A DNA stretch of 64,000 nucleotides from Thermoanaerobaculia bacterium (GCA_046704885.1 JBJKRB010000150.1:32527-96526), one strand, 5' to 3'; positions 1-34,559 are shown, counted from the first letter of the stretch. Notes: a model not told the origin generated them from the sequence alone. Translations and numbers: made by a program.

Positions 1-2
1 GG

Positions 3-1505
3 TCAGCTCCACGGGCTTGTCTCGAGCTCCAGGGTCGCCCGGATCCCGGGCGGATTGGACTGCTCGATCGGGATCGAAAAACGGTAGCGGCCCGGCCCGA
101 GCTTGACTCTCTTCGCTTCGGGCTCCGTCTGATTCGGACACTTGGAGTCGAAGCCATAGAGGAGCCTCCAACCTCCGCCCCTGAGCGGCACTGCCTCCAG
201 GTTCACCTTGTCGCGAAAGATGTAGCCGCCCTCGTAGTGATTCTTGGCGAACCACACCCCGTCGACCACGTACTCGGGCACCTGCACGCCGAGATCGAGC
301 GCGAACCCCAAGCTCTTGCGGCTCTCATCCACCCGCGCCGCCTTGGCCAGAAAGCTCGAAGCAAGATGCAACCGTCCTCCCGCCCCATCGCCTGACCCGC
401 CGACCAGGTCGTCATACCTGGCGAAGATGGCGGACTCCTCCGAGACCAGGCGACGGTGGAGGTCCCAGCGGGCGCCGCGCACGCGAGCCACGACCTCGAC
501 GTGGTACGACGCGCGCACCTGCTTGCCCTCTTCCTTCTGAGCCTTCACCTCCGGTGGCAGCGTGATCTCCTCCACCGCCAGGAAGGCATCGACGCGAACG
601 TCGCCAAAGAGGAAGCGGCGCAGGTTCTGGTAACCCTCCTCCGAGTTGACGATTCCGTACTGACCGGAATGAGCGCGGTGGACGAAAGCGCGCGGGCTGC
701 CCTTGGTGTAAGCGTTGGCGATTTGCACGAGGCCGTCGCTCATCGGACCCACCGCGACCCTGGCGAGACCGTAGTCGCGATGATCCGTACCGACCAGACA
801 GAACACCCGCTCGGGCGCGAACTTGCCGCCGAGGGCATTGACCGGCTGCTTCTTACCCAGCTTCAGGTACTCGCGCATCCGTTCCACGTTGAAGTTCTCG
901 CTGTTGTTGACGCGCAGAAACTCGGGAACGTTGCCCACCCAGCGAAAGTCGATCCCGCCGTGCGGCGTCGCATAGGTGAAGACCTTGTCGACACGCGGGT
1001 CGTCGGGGGAGATGTTCTGCAGCAGGCAACGGGCGATCAAGCCGCCCATCGAGTGCGCAACCAGGTAGACGCGAAAGCCGCTGTCACCCTGCGAGCCGTT
1101 CTCGGACGACGGACCACTTGACCCCACGAAGCGCATTTCCATGTCGTCGAGGAGCTTCTTCAAGCCGCGCGCGTAGTCTTCGATCTCGGGCCGCTTGCCA
1201 CTGCCCAGGTCCTCGGAGACCGGCTCGTAGTACCGGTAGATCCAGACGCTCTTCACCGGCGGCCTCGTGCCCTCCGGAATCTCGGCTCCATGCCGGTAGA
1301 CGTCCTGATACCCACCGTCCTTCATCAGGCGTACGAGGGGCGACTCGAAGATGTGGCGGGTGATGTCCTGAGTGTAGAGCTGCCGAATCTTGGTCGAGCC
1401 GAGATTGAAGCCCATGTAGGGATCGGAAACGGTGTCCTCGACCGCGGCCTGGGTTCCGGCGTAACCGCGGATGTAGACGATGGGAAAGTAGGGTCGCTTG
1501 AACAT
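3..1505 (-). CDS. alpha/beta-fold hydrolase (esterase/lipase, PGAP1-like) with C-terminal extension
   Basis: Nucleophile elbow AHSMGG and TYATPHGG motif. Start moved to MFKRPYFP (ATG 1505), which follows an AAGGAG RBS. Confidence 0.7.
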   Translation of the reverse strand: MFKRPYFPIVYIRGYAGTQAAVEDTVSDPYMGFNLGSTKIRQLYTQDITRHIFESPLVRLMKDGGYQDVYRHGAEIPEGTRPPVKSVWIYRYYEPVSEDLGSGKRPEIEDYARGLKKLLDDMEMRFVGSSGPSSENGSQGDSGFRVYLVAHSMGGLIARCLLQNISPDDPRVDKVFTYATPHGGIDFRWVGNVPEFLRVNNSENFNVERMREYLKLGKKQPVNALGGKFAPERVFCLVGTDHRDYGLARVAVGPMSDGLVQIANAYTKGSPRAFVHRAHSGQYGIVNSEEGYQNLRRFLFGDVRVDAFLAVEEITLPPEVKAQKEEGKQVRASYHVEVVARVRGARWDLHRRLVSEESAIFARYDDLVGGSGDGAGGRLHLASSFLAKAARVDESRKSLGFALDLGVQVPEYVVDGVWFAKNHYEGGYIFRDKVNLEAVPLRGGGWRLLYGFDSKCPNQTEPEAKRVKLGPGRYRFSIPIEQSNPPGIRATLELETSPWS

Positions 1506-1702
1506 CGGGTCTCCTTTCGACGCCTCGGCGACATTCGAACGAGCTGTTGGGGACCGAGGCGGGAAACCGCCAACAAGGGTGAGGCTCCATTCACTCTCGT
1601 TGCCGCGCAGTCCCGAGATCTGACAAGAAAGGGAGACACCTACAGCAAGCTCCAGGGGAGAGCCTGGAGCGCCGCGCCCGATCTCCATCGAGCGTAGAAG
1701 GC

Positions 1703-2680
1703 TCAGTCTTCGAAGGCCTGGGCGATCGAACGGTCGACGTCGAGCGCGGTCGCGACCGCGACGATTACCACCATTCCGGTCTTCTGTTGGACCTCGTCGC
1801 GAGCGCTCGGGTCCCCGGGATCGGTAACCACAATCGTGAGCACTCCCTGTTGAGCGCTCAGCGGAACGAATCTCAAACGTTCCATCATCTCCTTGGTCAC
1901 GATCGGGCGCAGACGAGAGTCCGGAACCTGCACCGAAAGATCGATGAACGGCACGTTGTACTGGATGGCGAGAGCGATGCCGATCATCTTATGCGTGGCG
2001 AAGCCGAGCTCGACGAGAATTTCGCCCAATCTTCTGCTTCGGAAGTGCTCCTGAAGGTCAAGAGCCTCCTCGAGCTCGACCCGGTTGATAAAACCTTGCT
2101 CAAGCAGGATCTCGCCGATCTTCCTGCTCTTCCACTTCTCCTGCAACGCCAGGCCCTTGGCGAGCTGCCCCGAGTCGATCTTGTTCTGTTGGATCAGGAT
2201 ATCGCCGAGCTTCTGGTCGCGAAGCCCACTCTGGTGCCGCAACGCCTCGGCCACCATTCGAGGAGTGACCATTCCTTCAGAGGTGAGAATCTCCCCCAGG
2301 CGCTGTACCGAAATCACCTCGCGAACCGCGTCGATCGGGAGAAAGACCCGTTCGACATTGGGGAGCTCGGTGGGAATGAGAAAGATTCCGTGCGGCGTGC
2401 CGACCGAGCTCTCCGTGATCCCCTGCAGAGTTTCGCCGTCGGTGAAGCGTACGGTCACGAGACGGGACGACGACTGCACCTTCACTTCATCCTCGGGGTG
2501 ACGCCGGCGCTCGATGAAGGCCAAAATCTTGACCTCGTTCAGTGGAATGGCCCTGACCTGCGCCGCCGTTCCCGCGCCTCCGGTCTGCACGTGGAAGACG
2601 GTCCGTGCGGGATTGAAGACCTCGAGCCGCCCGCTGAAGCGCTCACCGTCCCGCAAAGTGACCTCAACCTCCCGAGACAT
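1703..2680 (-). CDS. MshEN / GspE-PilB N-terminal repeat protein without ATPase domain; N-terminal DUF6982-like region
   Basis: Four [RK][LI]G[ED]IL...L..Q repeats (RLGEILTSEG, KLGDILIQQ, KIGEILLEQG, RLGEILVELG), then a T2SSE_N-like segment (YNVPFIDL...FVPL...DP). No Walker A motif. Confidence 0.75.
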   Translation of the reverse strand: MSREVEVTLRDGERFSGRLEVFNPARTVFHVQTGGAGTAAQVRAIPLNEVKILAFIERRRHPEDEVKVQSSSRLVTVRFTDGETLQGITESSVGTPHGIFLIPTELPNVERVFLPIDAVREVISVQRLGEILTSEGMVTPRMVAEALRHQSGLRDQKLGDILIQQNKIDSGQLAKGLALQEKWKSRKIGEILLEQGFINRVELEEALDLQEHFRSRRLGEILVELGFATHKMIGIALAIQYNVPFIDLSVQVPDSRLRPIVTKEMMERLRFVPLSAQQGVLTIVVTDPGDPSARDEVQQKTGMVVIVAVATALDVDRSIAQAFED

Positions 2681-2818
2681 CGCGTGGCCCTTCTTTGATC
2701 TGCCTTCGGTCAAGTCCTCTCCTCAGCGCGTCTTCCCGGCGAAGCAACGCCCCCCGTTCCGCTCGCGACGGCCACAAGCATTCTTGCATTCGTCCCAATG
2801 AAACTCAAAGTGTCGGGG

Positions 2819-3949
2819 TCACAATGAGCGAGTTCGACGCGCCGTAGCTGGATTCCCGGCGCGGGCCTCGGCCAACCGCCGCTTCGTCGTGCGCTCGATA
2901 GTGGGATCGGCGGCTTCCGCGGCGGCGTAGTGGCGGGCACTCTCGGCGTAGCGTCCGAGCTTGAAGTAGCAGAGCCCCAAGGCGTCCTGCGACCAAAGGC
3001 GGAAGAGCCGCTCGTCATGGGAGAGACCGGCGTCGAGATAGGTCTCCGCGTCGACCGCGGCCAGGGGCTCGAGAATGCTCGCGGCCTCGGAATAGCGCTC
3101 ATCCCGCACCAGGGCCTTAGCCCGCAGCCAGACCACCTCGGGCACGCCCGGGAAGAGCTCCCAGGCTTCGTCGAGAATCTGCACGTCTGACGCGCCCGAC
3201 ATCTCGAGAAACGTGAGAAGCGCGACGAAGGGGAGGCAGTCCACGTTCGTCGCGACCTGGCGCGAGCGAACGACGGCGATCCCTTTGCGCCAAGCGGCTT
3301 CGGCCTCGTCGCCCCGTCCGAGCCCCGCCAGCGTCATCCCCAGGTGGTACCAGCTGTAGACGTGATCGGGCTCGCTCGCGAGCCGCGCTTCGAGGAGAGG
3401 CAGGTTCCTCGGGTGCTTGTGGCTGATGTCTCCCTCGTAGCCCAGATGCTCGAGCTCGAGGTTGCTCTCGCCGATCCGCAGGTGATCGCTCGCCAGCACC
3501 TCGCGCAGGGCCGGAAGGTGGGACTCGTGGATCACGCCGCGGAAACGCAGCCGAGGATCGTTATGAAAGAGCCGATGCTCGCGAAAGCGGGTAAAGCCGG
3601 TGATCGGGCGGAAGAGGACGGTGGCCGCCGCGAGCCGCGGATCCCCGAGCAACGCTTCGAGCGCAGACCGATCGGCGCAGCGCGCCCGCTCATCGGCATC
3701 GATGTAGAGGATCCAGGCACCGGTGGCGAGGTCGAGGGCGCGGTTGCGCGCCGCGGCGAAGTCGCCTTGCCAAGGGAAGAGGTCGAGCTTGGCACCGTGC
3801 TCGCGCGCGATCTCGCGGCTCCGGTCGGAGGAGCCCGTGTCGACCACGACCACCTCGTCCGCGATGCCGCGAAGCGAGGCGAGACAACCGGCGAGGAATC
3901 GCTCTTCGTCCCGCACGATCATGGCGGCGGAGAGGAGCGGCTGAGGCAT
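2819..3949 (-). CDS. glycosyltransferase family 2 with C-terminal TPR repeats (SunS-like architecture)
   Basis: MIVRDEE, VVVDTGSSD, DFAAARN, IDADE, FRGVIHE and HLGY motifs; TPR helices (SWYHLGMTL, LGLCYFKLGRY). Confidence 0.9.
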   Translation of the reverse strand: MPQPLLSAAMIVRDEERFLAGCLASLRGIADEVVVVDTGSSDRSREIAREHGAKLDLFPWQGDFAAARNRALDLATGAWILYIDADERARCADRSALEALLGDPRLAAATVLFRPITGFTRFREHRLFHNDPRLRFRGVIHESHLPALREVLASDHLRIGESNLELEHLGYEGDISHKHPRNLPLLEARLASEPDHVYSWYHLGMTLAGLGRGDEAEAAWRKGIAVVRSRQVATNVDCLPFVALLTFLEMSGASDVQILDEAWELFPGVPEVVWLRAKALVRDERYSEAASILEPLAAVDAETYLDAGLSHDERLFRLWSQDALGLCYFKLGRYAESARHYAAAEAADPTIERTTKRRLAEARAGNPATARRTRSL

Positions 3950-3968
3950 GGAAGCTTTGGAGAAGAGG

Positions 3969-4352
3969 CTACGGAGAAGCGGACCGTCGCCGGCTCAAAT
4001 ACCAGGCGAAACCGGCGAGAAAGAGGATGAGCGCGATCGCTCCCACCGGCGAGAGAGTGGGGATCTCCGTCACCGGAATCAAGACCGTCGAGCTGACGGA
4101 GGCGTGGTTCCCCAAGTGGGAGACAACAAACGCATACTGGGGCAAAGGTTCCGCTCCGGGGTTCTTGAACACCAACTCCACGGCATTGTGCAGGACGGGT
4201 TCCGAGATCTCCACCGTGACCGTGTTTGTGATCGTCTTGGTGACGAACGCAGACGCTCCGCTCGAGATCGAGAGAACGACGAAGACGACGGCAAGAACCG
4301 TAAGGATCCGTACTCTGACGGCACGTCTAGGAGAGCTGGACATCACCCGCAT
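3969..4352 (-). CDS. small secreted protein with IPTL-CTERM sorting signal
   Basis: N-terminal basic + hydrophobic Sec signal ending ASA. C-terminal EIPTLSPVGAIALILFLAGFAWYLSRRR = IPTL motif, TM helix, basic tail. Confidence 0.8.
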   Translation of the reverse strand: MRVMSSSPRRAVRVRILTVLAVVFVVLSISSGASAFVTKTITNTVTVEISEPVLHNAVELVFKNPGAEPLPQYAFVVSHLGNHASVSSTVLIPVTEIPTLSPVGAIALILFLAGFAWYLSRRRSASP

Positions 4353-4354
4353 CT

Positions 4355-4852
4355 CTAGTCGACCGTGACCACGATCTGGACGACGCTGGTGGCGCCCACG
4401 ACCATCGAGATGAGTGAGCCACTCACCACACCGCCTTGGCTACCCACCGGCGGAGTACTGAGAGTAAAAGCCGGACCCGAAACGTTGCTCGCCGAAACGA
4501 ACTTCGTTCCAACGGGCAGAGCATCCTGAAAAACCACGCCTAAAGCCGGATCGGGGCCACAGTTGTAGATGGTGATCGTGTAGGTCAGGTCTTGCCCTGA
4601 GGCGACCGGCTCGGGGCTCGCCGTCTTGTTGATGACCACATTCGCGATATTCGAACCCACTCCGAGGTTCGAGGGACAGAGGTATTGGATGTTCGATCCC
4701 TGGGCGCGGGCCGGAGCGACGAACAGGTTGTCGAGAGAGAAAGAGGCGACGAGCGGTGCCGCGTACGCGGCGCCGAGTAGTAGGCGGCGAAAGAACTCTC
4801 GCCGCGACGAATCGATCTTCTCCAAGTGACGGTCAAGCTCTCGTGGGGACAC
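4355..4852 (-). CDS. Tat-signal protein with Ser-Asn repeat segment and DUF11 (Ig-like) domain; candidate modification substrate
   Basis: SRREFF twin-arginine motif and ARA cleavage site. DUF11 signature INKTASPEPVASGQDLTYTITIYNCGPDPA.GVVFQDALP.GT.FVS. AAGGAGG RBS before GTG. Confidence 0.8.
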   Translation of the reverse strand: MSPRELDRHLEKIDSSRREFFRRLLLGAAYAAPLVASFSLDNLFVAPARAQGSNIQYLCPSNLGVGSNIANVVINKTASPEPVASGQDLTYTITIYNCGPDPALGVVFQDALPVGTKFVSASNVSGPAFTLSTPPVGSQGGVVSGSLISMVVGATSVVQIVVTVD

Positions 4853-4908
4853 TCAGCCCTCCTTCTTTCGCTCAGTCTTGCCTTGAGCTGTCTTCGTGCA
4901 ACCGACCC

Positions 4909-4937
4909 ATTGTAGCCGCCCAGTCCCCCCCTCGCAA
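4909..4937 (-). promoter_or_regulatory. sigma70-type promoter for the Tat-DUF11 / IPTL-CTERM / GT2 operon
   Basis: Minus strand reads TTGCGA (4937-4932), 17-nt spacer, TACAAT (4914-4909); the -10 box lies about 57 nt upstream of the 4852 start. Confidence 0.55.
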
Positions 4938-4987
4938 GCAATCGCGGACAACCGCTTGCCGGCTGGACGGTAGACATCCCGCTATCA

Positions 4988-5764
4988 TTGTGGATGAAAG
5001 ACTCAGTTGCGATCATGACCTATCTCCGCCGCGGCACGCTCGACAGCTCCATCTGGCGGACCGTGCTTCATGAGTACGCCGCGCTCCCCCTCCGTTTCGA
5101 GCCCGGCGAGGTCGCCCTCGATATCGGATGCCACGTGGGTAGCTTCGCCCTCTTCGCCGCCGAGCGCGGCGCCAGGGTCCTCGCCTTCGAGGCCAACCGG
5201 GAGAACTATGCCCTCGCCTGCATCAACACTCGAGACTATGAGCAGGTGGAGATCCACCTTTCCGCAGTCTGGCGCTCCGACCGGCCTTCGGGGGAGCTCA
5301 TCTTCACCCCGCATCCGGATGGACAAAATACCGGGGGCGGCTCGGTTCTCTTTCGCCACCTCGACGACCATCGCGCCTACCTCGAGCTGGGCAATCTAGC
5401 CGCCTCATTGGGCGATCCTTCGCATCCGATCCTTCTCACTTCCCACCCGGTGCCGTCAGTCGGTCTCGACGCGATCCTCTCGGATATCGACAGAGAGGTC
5501 CGTTACCTCAAGATCGACGTCGAAGGGGCCGAATTCCCCGTTCTCGCGACGGCCACGATGCTGCGGAGGATCGAGACGATCGGTGGGGAGTACCACGAGC
5601 TCAACGATGCCCAGATGCGACGCCTGCCGGAGGAGGCTAGGGTGGGTGAGCAGCTCTACGACCGCCGCTTCTTGCTTGCCCTCCTGGAAGCCGCGGGTTT
5701 CGACGTCGACCTCCATCCGACCGCCCCGAACCAGGGCCTCTTCGTGGCTCAACGTCGATCTTGA
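4988..5764 (+). CDS. FkbM family SAM-dependent methyltransferase
   Basis: LDIGCHVGSF (motif I), VLAFEAN, YLKIDVEGAEF, GEYH. Exact start uncertain. Confidence 0.9.
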   Translation: MWMKDSVAIMTYLRRGTLDSSIWRTVLHEYAALPLRFEPGEVALDIGCHVGSFALFAAERGARVLAFEANRENYALACINTRDYEQVEIHLSAVWRSDRPSGELIFTPHPDGQNTGGGSVLFRHLDDHRAYLELGNLAASLGDPSHPILLTSHPVPSVGLDAILSDIDREVRYLKIDVEGAEFPVLATATMLRRIETIGGEYHELNDAQMRRLPEEARVGEQLYDRRFLLALLEAAGFDVDLHPTAPNQGLFVAQRRS

Positions 5765-6940
5765 TCACTCCGAGCAGCGCTCGAGCTCGGCGCGCAGGAG
5801 CCGGCCGACCACCTCCGGCGCGTAGTCGGCGCGCAGGCGCTCGGCGAGCAGGGAGCTCTGCTCCCGCGCCTCGTCCCGATGCTCGAAAACCCAGCGCATC
5901 AAGGTCCGCGCGGCCTCCGCGTCGGCCCTGGCCCATGAGGCTTCATCGCTCAGCTCCATCCAGCCGTCGGGCCGCGAGCGGGACGTCGCTTCGAGCTCGT
6001 AGGGAACGAGGAGAGGATAGTCCTCTCTGAGGTAATCGAGCGGCCCGGACCAACCGGTCACGACCACTGGATTTTCGGCAAGCACCGCTTCGAAGCAGCC
6101 CAACCCCCACCCCTCACCATGCGATAGCGAGACGAAGCAGTCGCCACGCTGGTGCAGTGCGGCGATCTCCGCTCGCGACAGCTCTCTCGTCAACAGACAG
6201 ACCCTGGCCGCCTTCCGATAGTCGGCAAGGATGCGCGCCATGCTCCACCAGGTCTGTCCCTCTTCCGGGGCTGTAGCCCCTGGCGATCCGGCGGCGGCGT
6301 ACGCCGCGATCTGATCCGTGGTGCCAGTCTTGACCACGAGGACGACGGGGTCTTTCTCGCTGAAAGCCTCGAGGTAGGCTCGGATCGTCTCCTCGAGCGC
6401 CTTGCGTGTCGTCCACGAACCGATCGTGTAGAAGACATAGTCGCCGGGGTCAACCGAGGCCAGATCGAGCTCACCTCCTTCGACGGGGCGCGGGGCGCAG
6501 TGGGGGACGACGCCGATACGAGCGGTCACGCCGCTCGCGGCGAAGGCGCGCTGGTTGAAGGTCGACGGGACCAACACGCGCTCGAACCGATTGAGATTGC
6601 TCACCCAGACTTCCGGTAGCCGGTCCGCCTCCCAGGTCGTGTAGACGGCCGCCGCAACCGAAGGCTCCACAAGCCGCCAGGGAAGTTGCCAGGCAGGCGG
6701 AACGTGGACGAGGAGGCGATCGTAATCGAGGGGCCGGTTGCAGAGATCGTCATGCTCGCCGCCCGAACGGCTTCCCAGAAATGGGGCGATTCCGAAGCTC
6801 GGGCCCCAGGCCTCGCTTCCCTCGACCATCGGCGTCCAGGTAATGGGCACCCCGAGGCGGCGAAGGGCGGAGAGATAGGCGAGGCCGGCCTCTCCGTATC
6901 CCGTACAGGGCATCATCGTGACCATCTTCAAGCCGCGCAC
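5765..6940 (-). CDS. glycosyltransferase family 4 (GT-B)
   Basis: TGYG, YTTWEADRLP, VLVPSTFN, RKA and SHGEGWGLGCFEA (E-X7-E) motifs. Confidence 0.9.
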   Translation of the reverse strand: MRGLKMVTMMPCTGYGEAGLAYLSALRRLGVPITWTPMVEGSEAWGPSFGIAPFLGSRSGGEHDDLCNRPLDYDRLLVHVPPAWQLPWRLVEPSVAAAVYTTWEADRLPEVWVSNLNRFERVLVPSTFNQRAFAASGVTARIGVVPHCAPRPVEGGELDLASVDPGDYVFYTIGSWTTRKALEETIRAYLEAFSEKDPVVLVVKTGTTDQIAAYAAAGSPGATAPEEGQTWWSMARILADYRKAARVCLLTRELSRAEIAALHQRGDCFVSLSHGEGWGLGCFEAVLAENPVVVTGWSGPLDYLREDYPLLVPYELEATSRSRPDGWMELSDEASWARADAEAARTLMRWVFEHRDEAREQSSLLAERLRADYAPEVVGRLLRAELERCSE

Positions 6941-7013
6941 TCTCGTCGCCCCTCTCCGTTCGTGGTCAACTTACTTAATGTCCAGTGCCATCTGAGCTCT
7001 GGCCTATTATCTC

Positions 7014-8264
7014 TTGGTGACTTGTGATCGCCTCCCCGCGCTGTCCATGGTCTCGTACGCTGAGCCGACCGGCTACGGCCTCTCCACGCTGGCCTATCTC
7101 GACGCCCTGATCAGTGCCGGGGCCTCGGTGACCTGGGTGCCCTTACTTCCCGAAATAGATCGTTGCGAGCCGCTCGCAAGATCCCAGTTTGCAGCGGACT
7201 CGGATCTAGCCCAACGCCTGTTCGCCGATCCTGGGGGAAAAGCCTTCGGACGCGCCCTAACGGCATGCGGCACCGAGCTGGAACCGGATCTGACGTTCCT
7301 CCACATCCTTCCCGAGCTCTGGCCTTTATGGCGGCACCCACTGAAGCCTACGATCGGTTACACGGCTTGGGAGTATGACCGTCTGCAGCTCCGCTGGACG
7401 CCGCTCCTGAATGCGGTCGATCGGGTCCTCGTACCGAGCGAGCACTGCCGCCGCGCCTGCCTGGCTAGCGGCATCACCACGGCGGTGGAGGTACTGCCGC
7501 ATCTGCCCCTCTCCCGCAAGGTCGCGAGATCGCCAGACCGCGAAGAAGGCCGCAGGCGCTTTGGCATTCCGGAAGGGCACTTCGCCTTCTACTCGATCGA
7601 GGAGGGCAGACCACGAAAGGCGATCGAGGACACGGTCGAAGCCTACCTGGAGGCGTTCTCCGCGCATGATTCGGTCGTTCTCGTCCTCAAAACAACCAAG
7701 ACGATAGAGCTCGGGAGCGGCGGTCCAGGAGCTCACGCTTTGACCGAGGCTCGCATCCAGAGAATCCTGGCCCGCCACAGGTCCCCCGCTCGAATCGAGC
7801 TCATCGACCAGATCTTGCCGCGGCGGGAGATCGAGCTCCTGCATGCGGCGGGCGACTGCTACGTAACGCTTTCTCGAGGTGAGGGTTGGGGATTGAGCAT
7901 CTTCGAGGCGGCACGCCGGGAAAAGCCGGTGGTGGCCACCGGCTGGGGCGGGCAGCTCGACTACTTGACCCCGGAGACGGCGTTCCTCGTCGACTTCGCC
8001 CTCGAGCCAATTGCGCGAACGATCCCGCCCATGGTCTGGGCGGTCGCCGATCGAGCACAGGCGGCCCGGCTTCTCCAGCGTGTCATCGAGCATCCGCAAG
8101 AAGCCGCCGCGCGAGGGCGCCAGGCGAGCGAAGCGATCGCCCGTGACTTTGCCTACGACAGGATCGTGGAGCGCCTTCTCGCCATCTTGATCGAAACGGG
8201 TTCGGCCGGCCTCAAGCGCTCGCAGATCATCGGGAGTCACCCGAGATCGAGCGGCGGAAGATAA
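7014..8264 (+). CDS. glycosyltransferase family 4 (GT-B), paralog of 5765-6940
   Basis: TGYG, YTAWEYDRL, VLVPS, RKA and SRGEGWGLSIFEA motifs. Start may be the ATG at 7047. Confidence 0.9.
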   Translation: MVTCDRLPALSMVSYAEPTGYGLSTLAYLDALISAGASVTWVPLLPEIDRCEPLARSQFAADSDLAQRLFADPGGKAFGRALTACGTELEPDLTFLHILPELWPLWRHPLKPTIGYTAWEYDRLQLRWTPLLNAVDRVLVPSEHCRRACLASGITTAVEVLPHLPLSRKVARSPDREEGRRRFGIPEGHFAFYSIEEGRPRKAIEDTVEAYLEAFSAHDSVVLVLKTTKTIELGSGGPGAHALTEARIQRILARHRSPARIELIDQILPRREIELLHAAGDCYVTLSRGEGWGLSIFEAARREKPVVATGWGGQLDYLTPETAFLVDFALEPIARTIPPMVWAVADRAQAARLLQRVIEHPQEAAARGRQASEAIARDFAYDRIVERLLAILIETGSAGLKRSQIIGSHPRSSGGR

Positions 8265-9076
8265 GGACGAAGCAGCCTGTTCAAGGCGGTGTCGCGCGCG
8301 CGGATCGACTCGATCGTGAAGTCGGCACCGCTCACGCGGCTGAAGTCGCGCCGCCACTCGCTCCACCACAGGTGACTCCAGAGATGCAGCGTGAAGCTCT
8401 CCGAGAGATCGAGCTCTTCCGGCGAGAAGAGGCGTTCCAGACCCTCGGCGCTACAGAGCACCGGAAAGAACGAGCGTTCGGGCTCGATCCGAACCTCGTC
8501 CGGGAGCTCGCCACTGAGACTCTCGGCGAGGAACCCAGAGTGGTTGCTCCAGGTACCGTCGAGCTCGCTTCCCATTCGTTGCCTCCAGACGGAAGCGAAG
8601 GCGGAGCCCGGGGCCGCGAGCATCAGCGCGTTGCACAGCGAGGGACGAAGCTCGCCGCTTCGCTCGTCGCGCACCGGGCCCTCGCGGCCGATGACGAACG
8701 GAGCGGCAAGTATCGCCTTGGGAAACGGCCGCAGGAACACCGTGTCGATGTCGGCGTAGACGCCACCGTGCTCGATCAGCGCGTCGAGGCGCACGAAGTC
8801 GGCGTGGTGGGCATAACGGTAGACTTCCGGCACGAGTCCGTCCCCGTAGTCGGCGGCCAGCACCTCGGCCGAGAGCCTGACCGGAATGAGCGTTAGATGA
8901 GGCCGAGCGAGCTCCCAGAAGATGCCGTAGGGGAGATGGAGATAGTGGAAGTAGATCGTCTCGGGCCGTAGGACCCGGCGGCACGACTCGATCGCTATGT
9001 AGTGCAGGAGATGAAACGGCTCGGTTTGAGCCTTGAGGCCGAAGACGAAATGGACGATCGGCGGAATTCGCCGCAT
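8237..9076 (-). CDS. glycosyltransferase family 32 (DXD sugar-binding, OCH1-like)
   Basis: IPPIVHFVF, ADFVRLDALIEHGGVYADID, CNALMLA and LHLWS motifs. Confidence 0.9.
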   Translation of the reverse strand: MRRIPPIVHFVFGLKAQTEPFHLLHYIAIESCRRVLRPETIYFHYLHLPYGIFWELARPHLTLIPVRLSAEVLAADYGDGLVPEVYRYAHHADFVRLDALIEHGGVYADIDTVFLRPFPKAILAAPFVIGREGPVRDERSGELRPSLCNALMLAAPGSAFASVWRQRMGSELDGTWSNHSGFLAESLSGELPDEVRIEPERSFFPVLCSAEGLERLFSPEELDLSESFTLHLWSHLWWSEWRRDFSRVSGADFTIESIRARDTALNRLLRPYLPPLDLG

Positions 9077-10393
9077 GAGGACCCGAAGAAGGAGCGCCGC
9101 GCAGCTTCCGCTGCCGACGCGGACGGCAAGATCCTAGCATCGGGACGGCGGGTCCTCTTCGTCGCGCCGATCGCTCCCGCTCCGACTGGCAACGGATTGG
9201 CCATGCGCGCCGGGGTTGCGCTTGACGCTCTCGCCGCTGAATCCCAGGTCGATCTGGTGATACTCCCCGTCGCGGGTCCCTTTCCGGAGGGCGCCGCGCT
9301 CGACTGGCTGAGAGAGCGCGCGCGGCAGGTGGATATCCTTCCCCTGCCGAGCCTCCAGGACAGCACCGCGGCCTGGTTGGGCGATCCGGCGAGCAGGGAG
9401 TTGCTCCAGGGGCTCGCGCCGCTCCCGCGCCTGGCGCGCTTTGCGCACCCGGGGTTGCTCGCACCCCACCTCGATACGGGCGAGCCTCGCTTCGATCTCG
9501 TCTACGTCCTTCGCCTCTATCTCGCGCCACTGGTCGCGCCGGGTGTCGCCCGGCAAGAGCGGCCACGCCTCGTCCTCGACGCCGACGACGACGACGCTTC
9601 GACCCTCGCCGCGCTCGCCGCGCTCGAAGAGGCAACGGGAAACCTGGACAGCGCTCGCAACCTTCGTGAAGAGAGCGATGCCTTTGCCCGTCTCGCGTCG
9701 CGCTGCCTCCCCTGGTTCGACAGCGTGCTGGCGGCAAGCGAGATCGACGCTCGGAAGCTCGAGGAGCGTTCTCGAAGGCCGGTGGACATTCTTCCCAACG
9801 CGGTGCCAATACCTCCCGAGGGGCGGCGGGCGGTGACAACCGGACCGTTTCGAATTGTCTTTGTCGGCAACCTCACGTACCTCCCCAACCGCGTTGCCGC
9901 AGAGCGGCTCGCCCGCTCGATTCTTCCCCGGGCACGAGCAAGGCTCGCTCGCGACGTCGAGCTCGATCTGGTCGGCCCGAACGGCCCCGAGATCGACCAG
10001 CTCGGGGACGAGGCCGGGGTCAGCGTGCGGGGCGCGGTTCCCGACCTCGCCCCCTTCTACCGCGCCGCCGACTGCTTCGTCGCGCCGCTCGCGGCGGGGG
10101 GAGGAAGCCGGATCAAGCTGCTCGAGGCATTCTCATACCGGCTTCCCGTGGTGGCCACGTCGAAGGCGGCGGCGGGCCTCGAGGTCGAAGCTGGCAGGCA
10201 CCTGCTTTTGGCCGAGTCGGACGCGGAGATCAGCGAAGCGATCGCTCGCTTCGGCGATGACGAAGAGCTCGGGGTAGAGATCGCCAGCGAAGCCTTCGCC
10301 TTCGTCACGCGTTACCACGACCGCACCGAGATCGTAGCCGCGCTGCCGCGAATGATCGGTCTCCAACGCAACTGCGAGGAGAGCCGCGCTTGA
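9050..10393 (+). CDS. glycosyltransferase family 4
   Basis: VLFVAP..P.PTGNG.AMR, ILPNAV, FVGNLTYLPN, GGGSRIKLLEAF...PVVAT. Start uncertain. Confidence 0.88.
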   Translation: MDDRRNSPHEDPKKERRAASAADADGKILASGRRVLFVAPIAPAPTGNGLAMRAGVALDALAAESQVDLVILPVAGPFPEGAALDWLRERARQVDILPLPSLQDSTAAWLGDPASRELLQGLAPLPRLARFAHPGLLAPHLDTGEPRFDLVYVLRLYLAPLVAPGVARQERPRLVLDADDDDASTLAALAALEEATGNLDSARNLREESDAFARLASRCLPWFDSVLAASEIDARKLEERSRRPVDILPNAVPIPPEGRRAVTTGPFRIVFVGNLTYLPNRVAAERLARSILPRARARLARDVELDLVGPNGPEIDQLGDEAGVSVRGAVPDLAPFYRAADCFVAPLAAGGGSRIKLLEAFSYRLPVVATSKAAAGLEVEAGRHLLLAESDAEISEAIARFGDDEELGVEIASEAFAFVTRYHDRTEIVAALPRMIGLQRNCEESRA

Positions 10394-11106
10394 GCCCGTC
10401 ACCCAGCGAGAGCGTGAAGACGATCGTTCTCGATCTCTCGATCTGCCGGATTGAGATCGCGGTCCAGGACCCCACGCTCCAGCACAGACTGGCGGCGCTG
10501 AGCAGCGCCCCTGAAGAAGCGAGCCAGTCAAAGCGCACTCTGCGTTACCGGATTCGCGGCTCGGGTCCCCTCGAGATCCACGAGGAACGAGATCGATTGG
10601 CGCAGGTCGATGGAGTGGAGACAGCCGTCGCCATGGTCCTCGAGCGCGGCCTGCGACGAGCGGCCGAGCTTCTCGCCCTAAGCGCCTGGGCTCCCTTCAC
10701 GGGCAGGATCGAACGCGAAGAGACCCGCCTCTTCGCTCTGATCGAACCGGCGAGCCATGGGCCCGATCTCCTTCCAGCGCGCCAGCTCTGGGTCCGCGGC
10801 GAGGAGCTCCTCGCCATGGACGTCTCCACCTCGGCGCTGACCTGTAGAGTGCTCGATCTGCGCTCAATCGCGGGCGTTGTGGTCGTGGGTCCAGCGGCCG
10901 GCCACGACCAATCCAAAGACCCTCAGCCCGCCGAGCTCATCGCACATCTTCTGCGAAGCTCTCCGCGCCTGGGGGCGCCCCGTTCCGCCCTCATTCGCGC
11001 CGCGAGCCGCCTGGCATCGCTCCCATCGCTCGTGAGCGCCGAGGGCTCGATCGATGACGCCCTGGATAGACTCCTCTCGCCCTCGCCGCCTGACGGGGCG
11101 ATGTAA
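10390..11106 (+). CDS. hypothetical protein; resembles a degenerate HprK-related kinase (no P-loop)
   Basis: Overlaps the upstream GT4 stop by 4 nt and directly precedes PqqD. The N-half layout recalls the HprK-related kinase N-domain, but GxxGxGK[ST] is absent. Confidence 0.5.
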   Translation: MSPSPSESVKTIVLDLSICRIEIAVQDPTLQHRLAALSSAPEEASQSKRTLRYRIRGSGPLEIHEERDRLAQVDGVETAVAMVLERGLRRAAELLALSAWAPFTGRIEREETRLFALIEPASHGPDLLPARQLWVRGEELLAMDVSTSALTCRVLDLRSIAGVVVVGPAAGHDQSKDPQPAELIAHLLRSSPRLGAPRSALIRAASRLASLPSLVSAEGSIDDALDRLLSPSPPDGAM

Positions 11107-11130
11107 TATCGTCCTCTCCCGAGCATAGCC

Positions 11131-11388
11131 ATGCCGCCGATCAAGAAAGAAGGACTGGAGCTGAGCGAGGTCAAGGACGGGTTTATCGTCTACGACCCAG
11201 AGAACGAGAGGGTCCATTACTTGAACGCGACGGCAAGCGTCATTTTCGAGCTCTGCGACGGCAAGCACGGGGAGAAAGAGATCGCCGCGTTCGTGGCCAC
11301 CACGTTTGGCTTGAGCGAGCCACCGCTCGCCGACGTCCGCCAGACCCTCGAGCAGCTCACCTCCGAGGGCGTGCTGCTCGACTCCTGA
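11131..11388 (+). CDS. PqqD family peptide chaperone (RiPP recognition element)
   Basis: 85 aa with the typical pattern EVKDGFIVYD...VHYLNATASVIFELCDG...IA...DV...LEQL..EGVL. No other pqq genes nearby. Confidence 0.92.
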   Translation: MPPIKKEGLELSEVKDGFIVYDPENERVHYLNATASVIFELCDGKHGEKEIAAFVATTFGLSEPPLADVRQTLEQLTSEGVLLDS

Positions 11389-11409
11389 GGAGGAAGGAGC
11401 TCCCAGCTC

Positions 11410-12087
11410 TCAGGCCGCCACCGATTGCCGCGATCCAGCTCGCGGCCGGCGGTGGCGATCGATCCAGTAGCCCCAGACAACGAGTAGCCACATCGCCTCT
11501 CCCGCCCAGCCGATCGCCTTGACGCTCGGCGGCGGCGGTCCGAAGAGGTTGACCAAGTAAACGGCGAGCAGGAAGCCGACCAGGGCCCAGAGGCTCCAGC
11601 TGCCGATCCGGTCACGCGGCGTCGTGGCGGCGACATAGACCGCGAGACCGACGGCGAAGATCGAGAGCTCGACGATCAGGGTCCCCGCGACCGAGTTCCA
11701 CAAGCCGAAGCCGAAGCGCAGGGGCGAGCCCCAAATGAGCGGCAGGTCGGGACGATGAACGAGGAGATCGAGAAACCAGTGGCTCGTCACTAGAACCCCC
11801 GCCACCACCGCCGGGGCCACCTTGCGCTTGGCCCACAAAACCAGGAGAGCGATCAGGACCGACCAGCAAACAGCGGCGGCCAGGCTGTGACTGATCGGGT
11901 AATGGTAGAAGTCGAGAGGAGTCAGCCGCGTGATGCCGGGCACAATCCTCACCTTCTCGACCCCCAAGAGGATGAGCGTCGGCCAGAGCAGGTCGAGAAA
12001 CTGGGCCGCTAGAAAGAGCGTACCGAGCGACAGGGATGGCGCGAATCGCTTGCCGGCAAAGCCCACTCCGAAGTGCCCGATGAACAT
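11410..12087 (-). CDS. membrane-bound metal-dependent hydrolase family protein
   Basis: MFIGH, FLDLLWP, SHSL and SHWFLDLLVH motifs; several TM helices. Confidence 0.75.
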   Translation of the reverse strand: MFIGHFGVGFAGKRFAPSLSLGTLFLAAQFLDLLWPTLILLGVEKVRIVPGITRLTPLDFYHYPISHSLAAAVCWSVLIALLVLWAKRKVAPAVVAGVLVTSHWFLDLLVHRPDLPLIWGSPLRFGFGLWNSVAGTLIVELSIFAVGLAVYVAATTPRDRIGSWSLWALVGFLLAVYLVNLFGPPPPSVKAIGWAGEAMWLLVVWGYWIDRHRRPRAGSRQSVAA

Positions 12088-12097
12088 CGCGCTCTCC

Positions 12098-12583
12098 CTA
12101 TAGAAGCTTGATGAAACGAAGGGTCTCGGGGACGTAGCCCAAGTGGTCATAGAGCGCCAAGGCGCGATGATTGGTGGCGAAGACGTTGAGGCTCAAGCGG
12201 TCGAACTCGTGCTGCCGTCCCCACTCCTCGGCGGCGCGCATCAGGGCGCTCCCCACGCCCTGTCCTTCGGCGTCTTCGCTCACCACCAGCATTCCCACGT
12301 GCCCGTGACGGGAGCCGGTGAAATAGTCCTCCACCGTTTCGAGGTAGACGAAGCCGCGCACCGCTCCGCCTTCGCCTTCGGCGACCAGCAGCCAAGTTCC
12401 CTCCGGCCCCTCCGTGAAATAGCGCTCGAGGGTCCGCCGCTCCCCGGCGATGATCTCTTCCTCGGGGCGCCAGGGCGGTACCTCGAAGCTCGCCAAGCGG
12501 GCCGCCTCGCGCAAGAGGACCTCCTTATCCTCTGGCTGCGCCGAGCGAACCTTCAGAGGCTCAGGCACGCCTTCTCCTCGCAA
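12098..12583 (-). CDS. GNAT family N-acetyltransferase
   Basis: Motif A LVVSEDAEGQGVGSALM; N.RALALY..LGY. Confidence 0.9.
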   Translation of the reverse strand: MRGEGVPEPLKVRSAQPEDKEVLLREAARLASFEVPPWRPEEEIIAGERRTLERYFTEGPEGTWLLVAEGEGGAVRGFVYLETVEDYFTGSRHGHVGMLVVSEDAEGQGVGSALMRAAEEWGRQHEFDRLSLNVFATNHRALALYDHLGYVPETLRFIKLL

Positions 12584-12604
12584 GGTTTCTAATTGCGCTC
12601 CGCT

Positions 12605-13975
12605 TCATAGCCGCTCCAGCCGGGCGGTGAAGTGCCTGAGGTGCTGACTCTCGTCGACTATGCGAAAACCGCGGAGCTCCGGGCTGCGCTTCGCTACCTC
12701 GCCCGCGACCTCGACGACGTAGTCGACGTGGCTCTGGGTATAGACCCGGCGCGGCACCGCCAGGCGAAGGAGCTCCAAGGGGGCGATTCGCTCCTCCCCC
12801 GTCTTCGGATCCTTTCCACCGAACATCAAGGTACCGATCTCGACCCCTCGCACTCCTCCCAGCTCGTAGAAGGCGCAGGCCAAGGCTTGGCCGGGGAGCT
12901 CGCGGGGTGGAATATGACGAAGAAAGCTGCCCGCATCTAGATAGACCGCGTGCCCTCCGGGCGGCTGGATGATGGGAATCCCGTGGCGGACCAGACCCTC
13001 GCCGAGGTAGCGGACCGAAGCCAGGCGATAGCGCAGATAGTCCTCATCGACCACCTCCTTGAGCCCTACCGCGATGGCTTCGAGATCGCGACCGGCGAGG
13101 CCGCCGTAGGTCGGAAAGCCCTCGGTCAGGATCAGGAGCTCTTGCTCGCTGCGCGCCAGGGCGTCGTCGTTGCCGGCGAGAAAGCCCCCAATGTTCGCCA
13201 GTCCGTCCTTCTTGGCGCTGAAGGTGGCGCCGTCGGCCAGAGAGAACATCTCCTGCGCGATCGATTCGACCGACCGCTCGCTGTAACCCTTCTCGCGCAG
13301 CTTGATGAAGAAGGCGTTCTCGGCGAATCGGCAGGCGTCAAGATAGAAGGGTACTTTCTGCCGGTGACAGATCTCGCTCGCCAGGCGCAAGTTGGCCATC
13401 GCCGCCGGCTGTCCACCGCCGGAGTTGTTGGTTATGGTGACGATGACGCAAGCGACCGAGGATCCCCGTTCGTCGAGCTGGCGCTCTAGCGCTTCGAGGT
13501 CGATGTTCCCTTTGAACGGGTGCTCGAGGCCGGGGTGGAGCGCCTCCGGCACCGGAATGTCGACCGCTTCGCCCCCGGCCGCTTCGACGTTGGCGCGAGT
13601 CGTATCGAAATGCGTGTTCGACAGTACGACCTTGCCCGCGACCCCGAGGGAAGCGAAGAGGATCCGTTCCGCCGCGCGCCCCTGATGCGTGGGAATGATG
13701 TGCTTGAAGCCGGTGAGCTCCCGCACTCGTGCCTCGAAGCGGAACCAGGACTCGGCGCCGGCGTACGACTCGTCGCCGCGCATGATGCCGGCCCACTGCT
13801 CGGAGGACATGGCGCCCGTGCCCGAATCAGTCAGGAGGTCGATCAGGATATGTCGCGCCGGGATGCGAAAAAGGTTCCAATCGGCCTGGCGGAGAAACTC
13901 CAGGCGTTCCGCGGCCGTCGTCATGTGCAAGGGCTCGACCGATTTGATGCGAAACGGCTCGATGATCGTCTTCAT
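12605..13975 (-). CDS. tnaA: tryptophanase (PLP beta-eliminating lyase)
   Basis: EPFRIKSVE, DLLTDSGT, THQGR, SAKKD (PLP lysine), GFPTYGGL. C-terminal LRHFTA has His as in tryptophanase, not Phe as in tyrosine phenol-lyase. Confidence 0.88.
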   Translation of the reverse strand: MKTIIEPFRIKSVEPLHMTTAAERLEFLRQADWNLFRIPARHILIDLLTDSGTGAMSSEQWAGIMRGDESYAGAESWFRFEARVRELTGFKHIIPTHQGRAAERILFASLGVAGKVVLSNTHFDTTRANVEAAGGEAVDIPVPEALHPGLEHPFKGNIDLEALERQLDERGSSVACVIVTITNNSGGGQPAAMANLRLASEICHRQKVPFYLDACRFAENAFFIKLREKGYSERSVESIAQEMFSLADGATFSAKKDGLANIGGFLAGNDDALARSEQELLILTEGFPTYGGLAGRDLEAIAVGLKEVVDEDYLRYRLASVRYLGEGLVRHGIPIIQPPGGHAVYLDAGSFLRHIPPRELPGQALACAFYELGGVRGVEIGTLMFGGKDPKTGEERIAPLELLRLAVPRRVYTQSHVDYVVEVAGEVAKRSPELRGFRIVDESQHLRHFTARLERL

Positions 13976-13978
13976 GTC

Positions 13979-14650
13979 TTAGGGAGTCTCCTCCTCGAGA
14001 AGGATAGTGGTGACAGCACGCGCGAAAAAGCGTATCAGCGTTTCTCCCGCCTCTTCGGCGCTCGCGCCGAAGCTCACCACGCCGTCTTCATGGCCTCCCA
14101 TGGCGAGGATGCGGAGATCGGGGAGCGGCGAATAGCGATAGAGGCGCGCGACCTCGTCCGCCATTCCCGGCGACCCGTAGGGAATCTCGGGAGCGGAGGT
14201 CGGGAGAAGGAGCGCCGCGCGGCGGCGCCAGACCTCGGGGCTGTGGACATGGAACACCCATCCGATGCTCGCATCGAGACGATAGACGGCATCGTGGGTG
14301 AGCGATTCGGAGGAAGGCGAAGCGAGACCGACGCTCCTAACCCGATTGGCCGCCGCATCGGACGCCTCGACGATGCAGAAGTCGGCGAGGGTCAGGCCCT
14401 CCTTGCCCCCGGTCTGCGACCCGGTGATGAGAAAGCGGGGAGCGCCTCCGTCGTCCTCGCCCTCCAGACGAGCGCTCAAGTTGCCGAAGGCAAAGCCCTC
14501 GTAGCGTCCAGGGTCGCGACCCACCATCCCCAGCCGGCGCAAGATCGCGCGCCAGGCCATGAGCCCCGCCGCCAGCGTGTCGACTCCTTCTGACCCGAGG
14601 CTCGCGCTACGGTGGTCGGAGTGAAACTTGATGACACCCTCGCCGCTCAC
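13979..14650 (-). CDS. class II aldolase/adducin family protein
   Basis: GNLSAR, FLITGS, SSESLTH, FHVHS and GHEDG metal-binding motifs. Confidence 0.85.
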   Translation of the reverse strand: MSGEGVIKFHSDHRSASLGSEGVDTLAAGLMAWRAILRRLGMVGRDPGRYEGFAFGNLSARLEGEDDGGAPRFLITGSQTGGKEGLTLADFCIVEASDAAANRVRSVGLASPSSESLTHDAVYRLDASIGWVFHVHSPEVWRRRAALLLPTSAPEIPYGSPGMADEVARLYRYSPLPDLRILAMGGHEDGVVSFGASAEEAGETLIRFFARAVTTILLEEETP

Positions 14651-17004: not shown

Positions 17005-17008
17005 GGTT

Positions 17009-31919: not shown

Positions 31920-31928
31920 TCCGAGCTC

Positions 31929-32150: not shown

Positions 32151-32159
32151 TCTGTTCTC

Positions 32160-34453: not shown

Positions 34454-34543
34454 ACAGCCGCCGGCGTCGGACTTGAAAAGAGCCTCGCATAGGAACTAAC
34501 GTTTTCCGCCACCCTCGAAGGCAGGCGCCGTCCGTGCGGGCAG

Positions 34544-34559
34544 CTACCCGTTTGGGTAG
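34544..34559. promoter_or_regulatory. palindromic putative transcription-factor site CTACCC-GTTT-GGGTAG
   Basis: Perfect 6-4-6 inverted repeat in the divergent ATPase/hydrogenase intergenic region; related copies at 63661 and 63746. Confidence 0.5.

Follow-up and report, generated by a model that had tools for sequence, protein, structure and literature searches.

Direct glycosylation of polypeptides is carried out by GmaR, the Listeria flagellin O-GlcNAc transferase, which glycosylates its protein in the cytoplasm ahead of export, and by SunS. Glycocins, as described from Firmicutes, carry single S- or O-linked sugars and are not known to involve an RRE protein. In serine-rich repeat adhesin systems, GtfA/B and the accessory Sec system provide stepwise cytoplasmic glycosylation from nucleotide sugars, followed by export, and the HMW1C-type N-glycosyltransferase, also cytoplasmic, acts on N-x-S/T. 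A Tat signal consists of an S/T-R-R-x-F-L-K-type motif, a hydrophobic region and an A-x-A site, and the Tat proofreading chaperones TorD, DmsD and NapD hold the signal peptide until the cargo has matured. Here we describe a cluster in a 64,000-nucleotide stretch of Thermoanaerobaculia DNA, called the window below, that on balance probably directs PqqD-guided cytoplasmic glycosylation of a leader-bearing polypeptide, followed by its export through Tat. A literature search found no description of such a system.

Gene content of the cluster

Genes in the window were called from Pfam and NCBIfam profile searches, the Pfam scan covering ORFs of at least 50 aa. Every gene that the original prediction had listed for 2819-11388 was found at its coordinates (Table 1); the start codon of the stp1-like GT4 is uncertain because this gene overlaps that of the GT32. 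No lipid-carrier gene, flippase, Wzy/Wzz, ABC exporter or priming phosphoglycosyltransferase occurs among the Pfam-scanned ORFs of positions 1-17055, Pfam detects no nucleotide-sugar (sugar-donor), radical SAM or lasso enzyme in the ORFs of the cluster or immediate flanks, and the cluster has no Pfam match to a lasso cyclase (Asn-synthase-like) or leader peptidase. Across the related loci, no priming transferase, flippase, polymerase or exporter is recurrent. Nine cluster proteins had no match among the PADLOC defence models, and the FkbM protein gave only a partial match, over the methyltransferase domain, to mad2 (29.6 bits).

Table 1. Features of the cluster, with positions counted from the first letter of the window.
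Feature	Position	Strand	Evidence or proposed role
GT2-TPR glycosyltransferase	2819-3949	-	Pfam Glycos_transf_2, 62 bits, plus TPR; proposed primer of polypeptide
Small secreted IPTL-CTERM protein, 127 aa	3969-4352	-	Signal peptide and IPTL-CTERM tail
Candidate substrate, 165 aa	4355-4852	-	Tat-type leader and DUF11
Substrate leader, residues 1-50	4703-4852	-	Tat-type signal, proposed also as recognition sequence
Substrate core, Q51-G-S-N54 then C-terminally truncated DUF11	4355-4702	-	Pfam DUF11
FkbM-family methyltransferase	4988-5764	+	PF05050, 48.1 bits; TIGR01444, 64 bits; proposed sugar methylation
GT4a glycosyltransferase	5765-6940	-	Glycos_transf_1, 29.4 bits; GT4-conflict, 32.5 bits; proposed extension step
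GT4b glycosyltransferase, GT4a paralogue	7014-8264	+	Glycos_transf_1, 31.3 bits
GT32 glycosyltransferase (Gly_transf_sug, DXD)	8237-9076	-	PF04488, 35.6 bits; proposed extension step
stp1-like GT4	9002-10393	+	Glyco_trans_1_4, 76.7 bits; TIGR03087, 96.7 bits, below cut-off
HprK-like protein, 238 aa, degenerate (no P-loop)	10390-11106	+	Alignment to relatives only
Stand-alone PqqD-family protein, proposed RRE	11131-11388	+	PF05402, 42.7 bits

Among solved structures, the GT2 domain of the GT2-TPR enzyme is nearest to GmaR (22ao, 7.5e-34, profile residues 5-194) and second nearest to SunS (3.1e-24). Its best NCBIfam match is the SunS family TIGR04195, at 60.1 bits against a cut-off of 350, and the enzyme is only a remote relative of that family. 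Full-length orthologues are present in 22 loci at 39-58% identity, with the DADE motif conserved (alignment A3). The stp1-like GT4, which scores far under the cut-off of 316.65 bits for TIGR03087 (PEP-CTERM/XrtA system glycosyltransferase stp1), is found in 15 of the 22 loci closest by GT2-TPR, mostly just upstream of PqqD; its nearest named relatives belong to polysaccharide loci of PEP-CTERM systems, which speaks against the reading that we favor. GT32 orthologues occur in four related loci, each time adjoined by a GT4a homologue, and an FkbM homologue (3e-55) adjoins the leader-DUF11 genes of another. The accessory enzymes that recur in the 24 positive loci are Anp1/GT62 (12/24) and Mannosyl_trans3/GT71 (10/24), together with GT32; these are glycosyltransferases of soluble-type families, best known from the yeast Golgi.

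The name HprK-like, also taken from the original prediction, is justified through relatives and not by the protein itself, which matches no Pfam or NCBIfam profile and falls short of the 200 bits and intact Walker A of TIGR04352 (HprK-related kinase A). It aligns with P-loop proteins of two other genomes, G035 and G048 (alignments A1 and A2), in comparison with which its Walker A/P-loop is replaced and an internal segment deleted. The family to which it aligns (277 representatives) has the consensus GxxGAGKTT, and weak matches to TIGR04352, below the cut-off, were obtained for 67 of 80 members. A structural model of the window protein (pLDDT 85.8) resembles PEPCK (Z 8.1) and HprK/P (Z 4.8-5.2). 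Judged by sequence, many of the relatives are active-looking kinases; the window copy is likely a pseudokinase or scaffold, and at most the latter because its ATP-binding loop has been lost.

The small protein encoded next to the candidate substrate scored 20.1 bits with the IPTL-CTERM model TIGR04174 (cut-off 20.5) and 22.0 bits, over the cut-off, in a genome-wide search, which gave 24 IPTL-CTERM matches over cut-off. In two other loci (L006 and L096) the same position is taken by a homologous small ORF, in which ITNT.TV is an invariant motif and the tail is of PTL type.

A conserved leader and its neighborhood

The leader region of the candidate substrate has an SRREFFRR motif, then a hydrophobic stretch and A-R-A-Q, so that all three elements of a Tat-type signal are present. 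Neither Pfam nor the curated Tat-signal model TIGR01409 matches the window substrate, and TIGR01409 gave 10.3-12.9 bits, against a cut-off of 16.7, on 5 of 10 substrates tested. TatC is encoded in the genome (235 bits), and from its leader the product may be expected to leave by Tat. In a leader profile of 29 rows (A7), R18, P33 and F38 are invariant and S37 nearly so; of the twin arginines, the second is invariant and the first is R or K. The hydrophobic stretch holds a nearly invariant AP-x-V-A-S-F segment, with the A-x-A site after it.

Comparison along this profile showed the leader to be much better conserved than the cargo, which ranges from 4 residues up to DUF11 domains and includes pentapeptide repeats and, on several substrates, PEP-CTERM-type tails (profile search, partly by eye). 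The majority of the family consists of peptides 48-110 aa long whose cores are very short. DUF11 cores form a minority branch of six loci only, leader-DUF11 homologues of the window gene being present in five others, and the original proposal of a modified protein rather than a peptide applies to this branch and not to most members. The window DUF11 domain scores 50.3 bits with PF01345 (gathering score 24.6) over profile positions 2-84 of 114 only.

Just past the leader, 29 of 37 substrates have an Asn at +15 or +16 from the Phe of the ASF motif (N54, at +16, in the window). N-x-S/T falls within +11 to +30 in 25 of 37, where 2000 shuffles gave 11.1 on average and never more than 20, the 37 rows being related sequences whose counts are not independent. 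Two points speak against a simple reading of these residues: the conserved Asn of the window is followed by I-Q and not by x-S/T, contrary to an N-x-S/T site, and SunS-type enzymes are known for Cys, Ser and Thr and are not known for Asn.

We compared 80 GT2-TPR loci, the closest 22 of which come from at least four phyla. The original prediction had proposed a search for ORFs with the same leader in homologous GT/PqqD clusters, and such ORFs are there: the closest 22 loci contain the leader in 17 cases by HMM and in two more (L016 and L021) by eye, PqqD in 19 and an HprK-like gene in 12, and the 57 loci with remote GT2-TPR genes contain none of the three, counts that overstate independence since the loci are related to each other. 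All four components (leader, PqqD, HprK-like and stp1-like GT4) are present in L057. Leader and PqqD are both missing from two of the close loci, L010 (on a contig of 5 kb) and L025 (21 kb), and L027 is doubtful. The gene order is stp1-like GT4, PqqD, HprK-like, a 50-aa leader ORF and GT2-TPR, plus GT32, in G035, and PqqD, HprK-like, leader and GT2-TPR in G048.

The association also holds in the reverse direction. Profile A7 has one strong match each in G000, G035 and G048, at the cluster each time. Five further genomes together have 10 matches, of which six fall at known loci and four in three more complete clusters; in the eight genomes, each of the 13 strong matches to the leader is inside such a cluster. 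In the genome of the window, the single strong match is the window substrate. The system is conserved and widespread, with a patchy distribution across phyla, and the constant PqqD/GT neighborhood of the leader gene suggests the assembly of sugars directly on the peptide or protein before export.

Further bearing on recognition, the arrangement is that of a RiPP locus with an RRE, a precursor with a conserved leader and variable core standing beside the candidate RRE and a modifying enzyme. The window PqqD exceeds the gathering score of PF05402 (23.4 bits) and is below the cut-off of TIGR04353, the HPr-rel-A system PqqD chaperone (30.9 bits against 35); its orthologues (n=23, 36-48% identity) share invariant H29, N32, A35 and C42. 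The predicted complex of PqqD and leader scored 0.47, against 0.13 for the best of three controls. That mark is reached by 58 of 80 solved complexes and by 2 of 110 mismatched pairs, but only 7 of the 80 score 0.60 or less; since structures of RRE-leader complexes exist for other families, the result may reflect likeness to those. Contacts agreed between runs to at least 97%, with a partner pLDDT of at least 62, and the model is weakly consistent with PqqD binding the leader as an RRE.

Proposed pathway and alternatives

We suggest that the Tat-type signal, about the first 50 residues of the 4355-4852 product, doubles as a RiPP-style leader. The stand-alone PqqD would bind its conserved segment in the cytoplasm, retaining the substrate and presenting the residues just past the A-x-A site, and the GT2-TPR enzyme would place the initial sugar on or beside the Asn 15-16 residues past the ASF motif. 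The stp1-like GT4, the GT32 and the two other GT4 enzymes would lengthen the glycan directly from nucleotide sugars, and the FkbM enzyme would methylate it. The glycosylated product, by now bulky, would then leave through the Tat translocase and lose its leader to signal peptidase; in the DUF11 branch, it may be tethered by the adjoining IPTL-CTERM protein.

The small size of most family members and the low scores of the curated Tat-signal models would also suit a classical secreted glycopeptide RiPP, in which PqqD and GT2-TPR modify a peptide whose Tat-like N-terminus is a leader only, removed by a protease, and which exits by another route. We consider this unlikely: the conserved pair of an R or K and an invariant R and the A-x-A site would be superfluous for recognition alone, the neighborhoods show no recurrent peptidase or ABC exporter, and the 113-residue DUF11 core would be odd cargo. 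It is very improbable that the locus is an ordinary polysaccharide or glycolipid cluster, building its glycan on a lipid or soluble acceptor, with the leader ORF as an exported accessory and another role for PqqD. The resemblance of the GT4 to stp1 of PEP-CTERM/XrtA polysaccharide loci, the PEP-CTERM-type tails and the close GT2-TPR orthologue in L025 could be so explained, but the locus lacks the priming transferase, flippase, polymerase and exporter among the genes found, its GT2 is nearest to polypeptide glycosyltransferases, and neither the strict two-way co-occurrence of leader and cluster nor the fixed distance of the Asn from the leader motif fits.

The HprK-like gene raises the possibility of a phosphorylation-centred pathway as in kinase-tailored lasso peptides, the kinase phosphorylating Ser/Thr of the precursor and sugars being placed onto the phosphate. 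An intact P-loop in the HprK-like proteins of 12 of the 22 closest loci, NTP_transf_5 genes in 6 of the 24 positive loci and the existence of a canonical PqqD-HprK-NTP_transf_5 cassette agree with it. For the window, however, it is impossible, with Walker A lost and part of the domain deleted, and an HprK-like gene is wholly missing from some 10 positive loci, among them every other DUF11-type locus; as a general explanation we give it very little weight.

Within PqqD-guided glycosylation and Tat export, we tentatively raise the possibility of a new class of ribosomal glycoconjugates, in which a Tat signal is the RRE-recognised leader, an Asn at fixed distance is N-glycosylated in the cytoplasm by GT2-TPR, soluble GT32/GT62/GT71 enzymes extend the glycan on a short mature peptide serving as its primer, and Tat exports the product. 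If so, a mature peptide of 4-10 residues would be little more than a ribosomally made glycan primer that stands in for a lipid carrier; it would pass through Tat folded or bulky and, with a PEP-CTERM/IPTL-CTERM tail or partner, go on to exosortase.

Relation to described systems

As in glycocin biosynthesis (SunS/ThuS), where the enzyme acts directly on a ribosomal peptide, the window enzyme joins a GT2 domain to a helical repeat domain; unlike glycocin loci, this one encodes PqqD, a methyltransferase and four to five glycosyltransferases more, and its substrate has a Tat-type leader and a conserved Asn. The HPr-rel-A system (TIGR04352 and TIGR04353) also pairs PqqD with an HprK-like protein, often with NTP_transf_5, but all scores here are under its cut-offs and the window HprK-like copy has no P-loop; the canonical HPr-rel-A loci compared (n=4) have the PqqD-HprK-NTP_transf_5 cassette with neither GT2-TPR nor leader ORF. 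GmaR has the closest solved GT2 domain, and differs in having no known leader/RRE logic, in adding a single sugar and in the export of its product via the flagellar apparatus. The adhesin and HMW1C systems share the stepwise cytoplasmic addition of sugars before export that is proposed here, and the N-x-S/T preference resembles that of the cytoplasmic N-glycosyltransferases, whereas these systems use GT41, GT4/GT8 enzymes, no known RRE and Sec-type rather than Tat-type export. TorD, DmsD and NapD have folds unrelated to PqqD, and the maturation of their cargo is cofactor insertion, not glycosylation, yet the role we propose for PqqD, holding a Tat signal until the cargo is mature, is the same as theirs.

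The gene cluster and its surroundings

The window has a G+C content of about 65%, and the ORF listing and profile searches found every gene that the original prediction had named in the cluster at 2819-11388 (see the table). Upstream the cluster is flanked by an alpha/beta hydrolase and an MshEN-domain protein, and downstream by a membrane protein, a GNAT protein, a beta-eliminating lyase, an aldolase and a phosphoketolase, all of which appear unrelated to it. Positions 3501-5000, which hold the substrate and IPTL-type genes, fall to a G+C of about 0.60, against 0.64-0.68 around them. Functions unrelated to the cluster also occupy 12605-18256 and 28248-41448, among them a phosphoketolase adjoining an acetate kinase, V/A-type ATPase subunits, a [NiFe]-hydrogenase large subunit with HypF, a PAS-GGDEF-EAL protein and a P-type ATPase. 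PADLOC reported no defence system in the cluster, and the sequencing runs containing the stretch are four DNA runs, all of one study, with no RNA run listed.

Genes of the cluster, from the ORF listing and profile searches
Product	Position	Strand
GT2-TPR	2819-3949	-
127-aa protein, signal peptide and IPTL-CTERM tail	3969-4352	-
165-aa protein: Tat-type N-terminus (SRREFFRR, hydrophobic stretch, A-R-A-Q), then DUF11 domain	4355-4852	-
FkbM	4988-5764	+
GT4	5765-6940	-
GT4	7014-8264	+
GT32	8237-9076	-
stp1-like GT4	9002-10393	+
238-aa protein without family match	10390-11106	+
PqqD	11131-11388	+

Recurrence and anatomy of the leader

A genome of the same order as the source genome but, by taxonomy, of a different family (G035) has a cluster in the order stp1-like GT4, PqqD, HprK-like, 50-aa ORF, GT2-TPR, with GT32, GT4a-like and NTP_transf_5 genes running divergently. 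The 50-aa ORF is 49% identical to the N-terminus of the 165-aa window protein and ends five residues past the A-x-A-Q site; public data gave seven peptide clusters of 50-58 aa, the G035 peptide among them. As the 238-aa protein has so few relatives (only three close ones in a word-based homologue search, with occurrences in 2 of 41 related genomes and 2 of 401 genomes of the phylum), the GT2-TPR gene was taken as the search anchor. Its alignment, scanned over one genome per species, yielded 80 loci, whose six-frame ORFs were searched with profiles from the window and G035 genes. In the 22 closest loci (L006-L027), where GT2-TPR is full length and 39-58% identical, profile matches were found for the leader ORF in 17, PqqD in 19, the HprK-like protein in 12 and the stp1-like GT4 in 15. 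All four also occur at L057, and the first three at none of the 57 other loci, where the stp1-like GT4 was not counted (3 weak matches). The proposal that leader ORFs would recur in homologous glycosyltransferase/PqqD clusters is thus borne out. The leader ORFs of L016 and L021 were recognized by eye and that of L027 is doubtful, while neither profile nor eye revealed one in L010 (a 5 kb contig) or L025. The commonest gene order is GT4-PqqD-HprK-leader-GT2-TPR, gene starts being approximate in high-G+C loci. Recorded hosts include Thermoanaerobaculia, other Acidobacteriota, Casimicrobiaceae, a Deltaproteobacteria MAG, Dongiaceae, Stellaceae, Bradyrhizobium diazoefficiens, Asaia, Phenylobacterium, Solirubrobacterales, Thermoleophilia and Acidimicrobiia. 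At L057 (675-12304, an Alphaproteobacteria MAG), almost all genes of the cluster are broken into 2-4 ORFs each (GT4, HprK-like, GT2-TPR, GT62, NTP_transf_5), and this cluster is either decayed or an assembly with many frameshifts.

Searching from the leader led to the same clusters. A leader profile of 29 rows gave one strong match each in the source genome, G035 and G048, all at the cluster, and a single weak match (18.9 bits) elsewhere in the source genome. Five further genomes gave 10 matches, six at known loci and four at three new places (L094-L096). Each of these places holds a second complete cluster with GT2-TPR, PqqD and stp1-like GT4, and two of them additionally have HprK-like, GT62 and GT71 genes; over the eight genomes, 13 of 13 strong matches lie inside clusters. 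The complete system is present twice in three of the five extra genomes (G429, G433 and G432, with L094, L095 and L096, respectively), every copy having one or more leader genes to itself, which suggests duplication or repeated acquisition. NCBIfam has no curated model for the leader. The full leader alignment being too variable for a metagenome scan, four leader-DUF11 proteins were used instead; they returned six loci, of which two (L088 and L089) are true relatives and four (L090-L093) were rejected as leaderless DUF11 repeat proteins with no kinship to the system.

Within the 29 rows the second arginine, one proline and one phenylalanine of the leader are invariant, and the residue preceding the phenylalanine is almost always serine (S or T in the rows inspected). 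The cargo that follows is highly variable, and comprises tails of 4-10 residues, three tandem peptide genes (L011), Thr-rich or GQNQT-repeat tails, pentapeptide repeats (L009, L012), a PEP-CTERM domain (L017, 22.6 bits; L007 and L026 alike by eye) or a DUF11 domain (the window, L006, L008 with two, L088, L089 and L096). Of 37 substrates, 29 have an Asn at +15 or +16 from the Phe of the ASF motif, and 33 have one at +14 to +18; N-x-S/T occurs within +11 to +30 in 25 of the 37, against a mean of 11.1 and a maximum of 20 in 2000 shuffles of the tails, counts that are descriptive rather than a probability because the rows are related sequences. In the window protein the Asn is at +16 and is followed by I-Q. 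Judged from these alignments, the spacing from motif to Asn appears fixed, as would be expected if a leader-bound enzyme reached one defined site. The tandem leader-peptide genes of L011 (9313-9939) have near-identical leaders and slightly different ends of 4-6 residues, an arrangement typical of RiPP precursor arrays. At L005 (6638-7861, in G048), the GT2-TPR gene has a radical SAM/DUF3463 gene as its neighbour, and the leader peptide is the only one among those inspected without an Asn past the A-x-A site.

The HprK-like and IPTL-type proteins

The 238-aa protein aligns with proteins of 278 and 342 aa from G035 and G048, both with a Walker A loop; in the alignment, the window protein has lost this loop and one further segment, as have the three proteins closely related to it. 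An exhaustive profile search gave 277 representatives of the family, with the consensus GxxGAGKTT, and 67 of 80 members give weak matches to HprK-related kinase A, all well short of the cut-off. A single-sequence fold was not usable (pLDDT 36), and a model built on the family alignment (pLDDT 85.8) resembles PEP carboxykinase (Z 8.1, rmsd 4.9, 215 aligned) and, in its C-terminal half, HprK/P (Z 4.8-5.2, about 100 aligned), all with middling Z; Foldseek found no match to it at E <= 0.001, the best being PEPCK at about 1e-2. The description of the protein as HprK-like thus stands at the level of the superfamily, from its relatives and structural likeness, but the window copy lacks the usual ATP binding because the Walker A loop is lost. 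In L006 and L008 the PqqD ORFs are long, and their upstream parts have no homology to the HprK-like protein of the window; these ORFs are probably over-extended.

In the DUF11 branch, the window, L006 (6284-6562) and L096 (10452-10715) encode, 3' of the substrate gene, a small protein of IPTL type in which the motif ITNT.TV, directly past the signal peptide, is invariant. The DUF11 match of the substrate core ends at profile position 84 of 114, leaving the last 30 or so positions missing, so it might be imagined that the IPTL-type protein completes a split domain by donating the missing strand and anchors it to the membrane; BLAST of this protein against DUF11 repeats gave no significant match (E >= 2). 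Outside the window, some 11 kb upstream, three neighbouring ORFs of 62-68 aa (G000:C150:20978-21554) have IPTL-CTERM-like tails below the cut-off, and the whole source genome has 24 IPTL-CTERM matches over it, with a single weak match to the exosortase family (42.7 bits).

Proposed pathway and relation to known systems

We infer the functions of all the cluster products, and the reading in the original prediction is the most economical: PqqD would bind the leader, GT2-TPR would prime close to the conserved Asn, the remaining glycosyltransferases and FkbM would assemble a methylated oligosaccharide, and Tat, of which the source genome encodes TatC, would export the product. The complex prediction for PqqD and leader scored 0.47 against 0.13 for the best control, which lends this binding weak support, and 23 PqqD orthologues, 36-48% identical to that of the window, conserve the strand motif around H29-N32. 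The nearest solved structures to the GT2 domain are GmaR and SunS, both of which act directly on polypeptides. One accessory glycosyltransferase set, GT32 and GT4a-like, is found in the window, L003, L015, L020 and L022; a second comprises Anp1/GT62 (12 of 24 positive loci) and Mannosyl_trans3/GT71 (10 of 24), and NTP_transf_5 occurs in 6 of 24. In yeast, enzymes of these accessory families use nucleotide sugars to lengthen protein-linked mannan. PqqD may double as a hold-back chaperone, a role resembling that of Tat proofreading chaperones.

We consider it unlikely that the cluster makes a glycopeptide RiPP independently of Tat. Less likely still is an ordinary glycan cluster, and a pathway centred on phosphorylation is equally improbable. 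Lipid-carrier, flippase, polymerase, exporter, radical SAM and lasso genes had been reported absent, and profile searches at the cluster and its immediate flanks likewise found none. The kinase is accessory to the system: the window copy is dead, and the other DUF11-type loci lack the gene.

If PqqD-guided glycosylation before Tat export is correct, RiPP logic (leader and RRE) would reach multi-step glycan assembly and whole protein domains, and Tat would gain a new role in exporting cargo that owes its bulk to glycosylation and not to folding or cofactors. It would account for a recurrent cassette without a curated name in Acidobacteriota, Proteobacteria (including B. diazoefficiens) and Actinomycetota, and the leader of about 50 residues with its fixed-distance Asn would be a compact, portable glycoengineering tag. 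Cytoplasmic glycosylation would also be connected with PEP-CTERM/IPTL-CTERM sorting, for which a tie to glycans is a long-standing suspicion and, to our knowledge, has never been shown.

In the literature covered, including passages from the RRE-mining papers PMC7470986 and PMC12710340, whose supplements may list such clusters, no Tat-type leader with PqqD and GT2-TPR is described, and RRE-glycosyltransferase fusions are the only related case in those passages. The canonical HPr-rel-A cassette (PqqD-HprK-NTP_transf_5) scores over the cut-off in 14 of the 251 Alphaproteobacteria (a tally including the unpublished genome G673), or 74 of 251 in a wider tally (including G473). In the four loci inspected (L109-L112), with PqqD, HprK-related kinase A and an NTP_transf_5-like gene, it differs in lacking GT2-TPR and the leader, and no substrate gene of the leader family is recognizable. 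Glycocins have an enzyme type in common with the cluster and differ in RRE, leader type, glycan length and taxa. We file the system under RRE-dependent peptide modification together with cytoplasmic protein glycosylation, the window holding its protein-cargo form.
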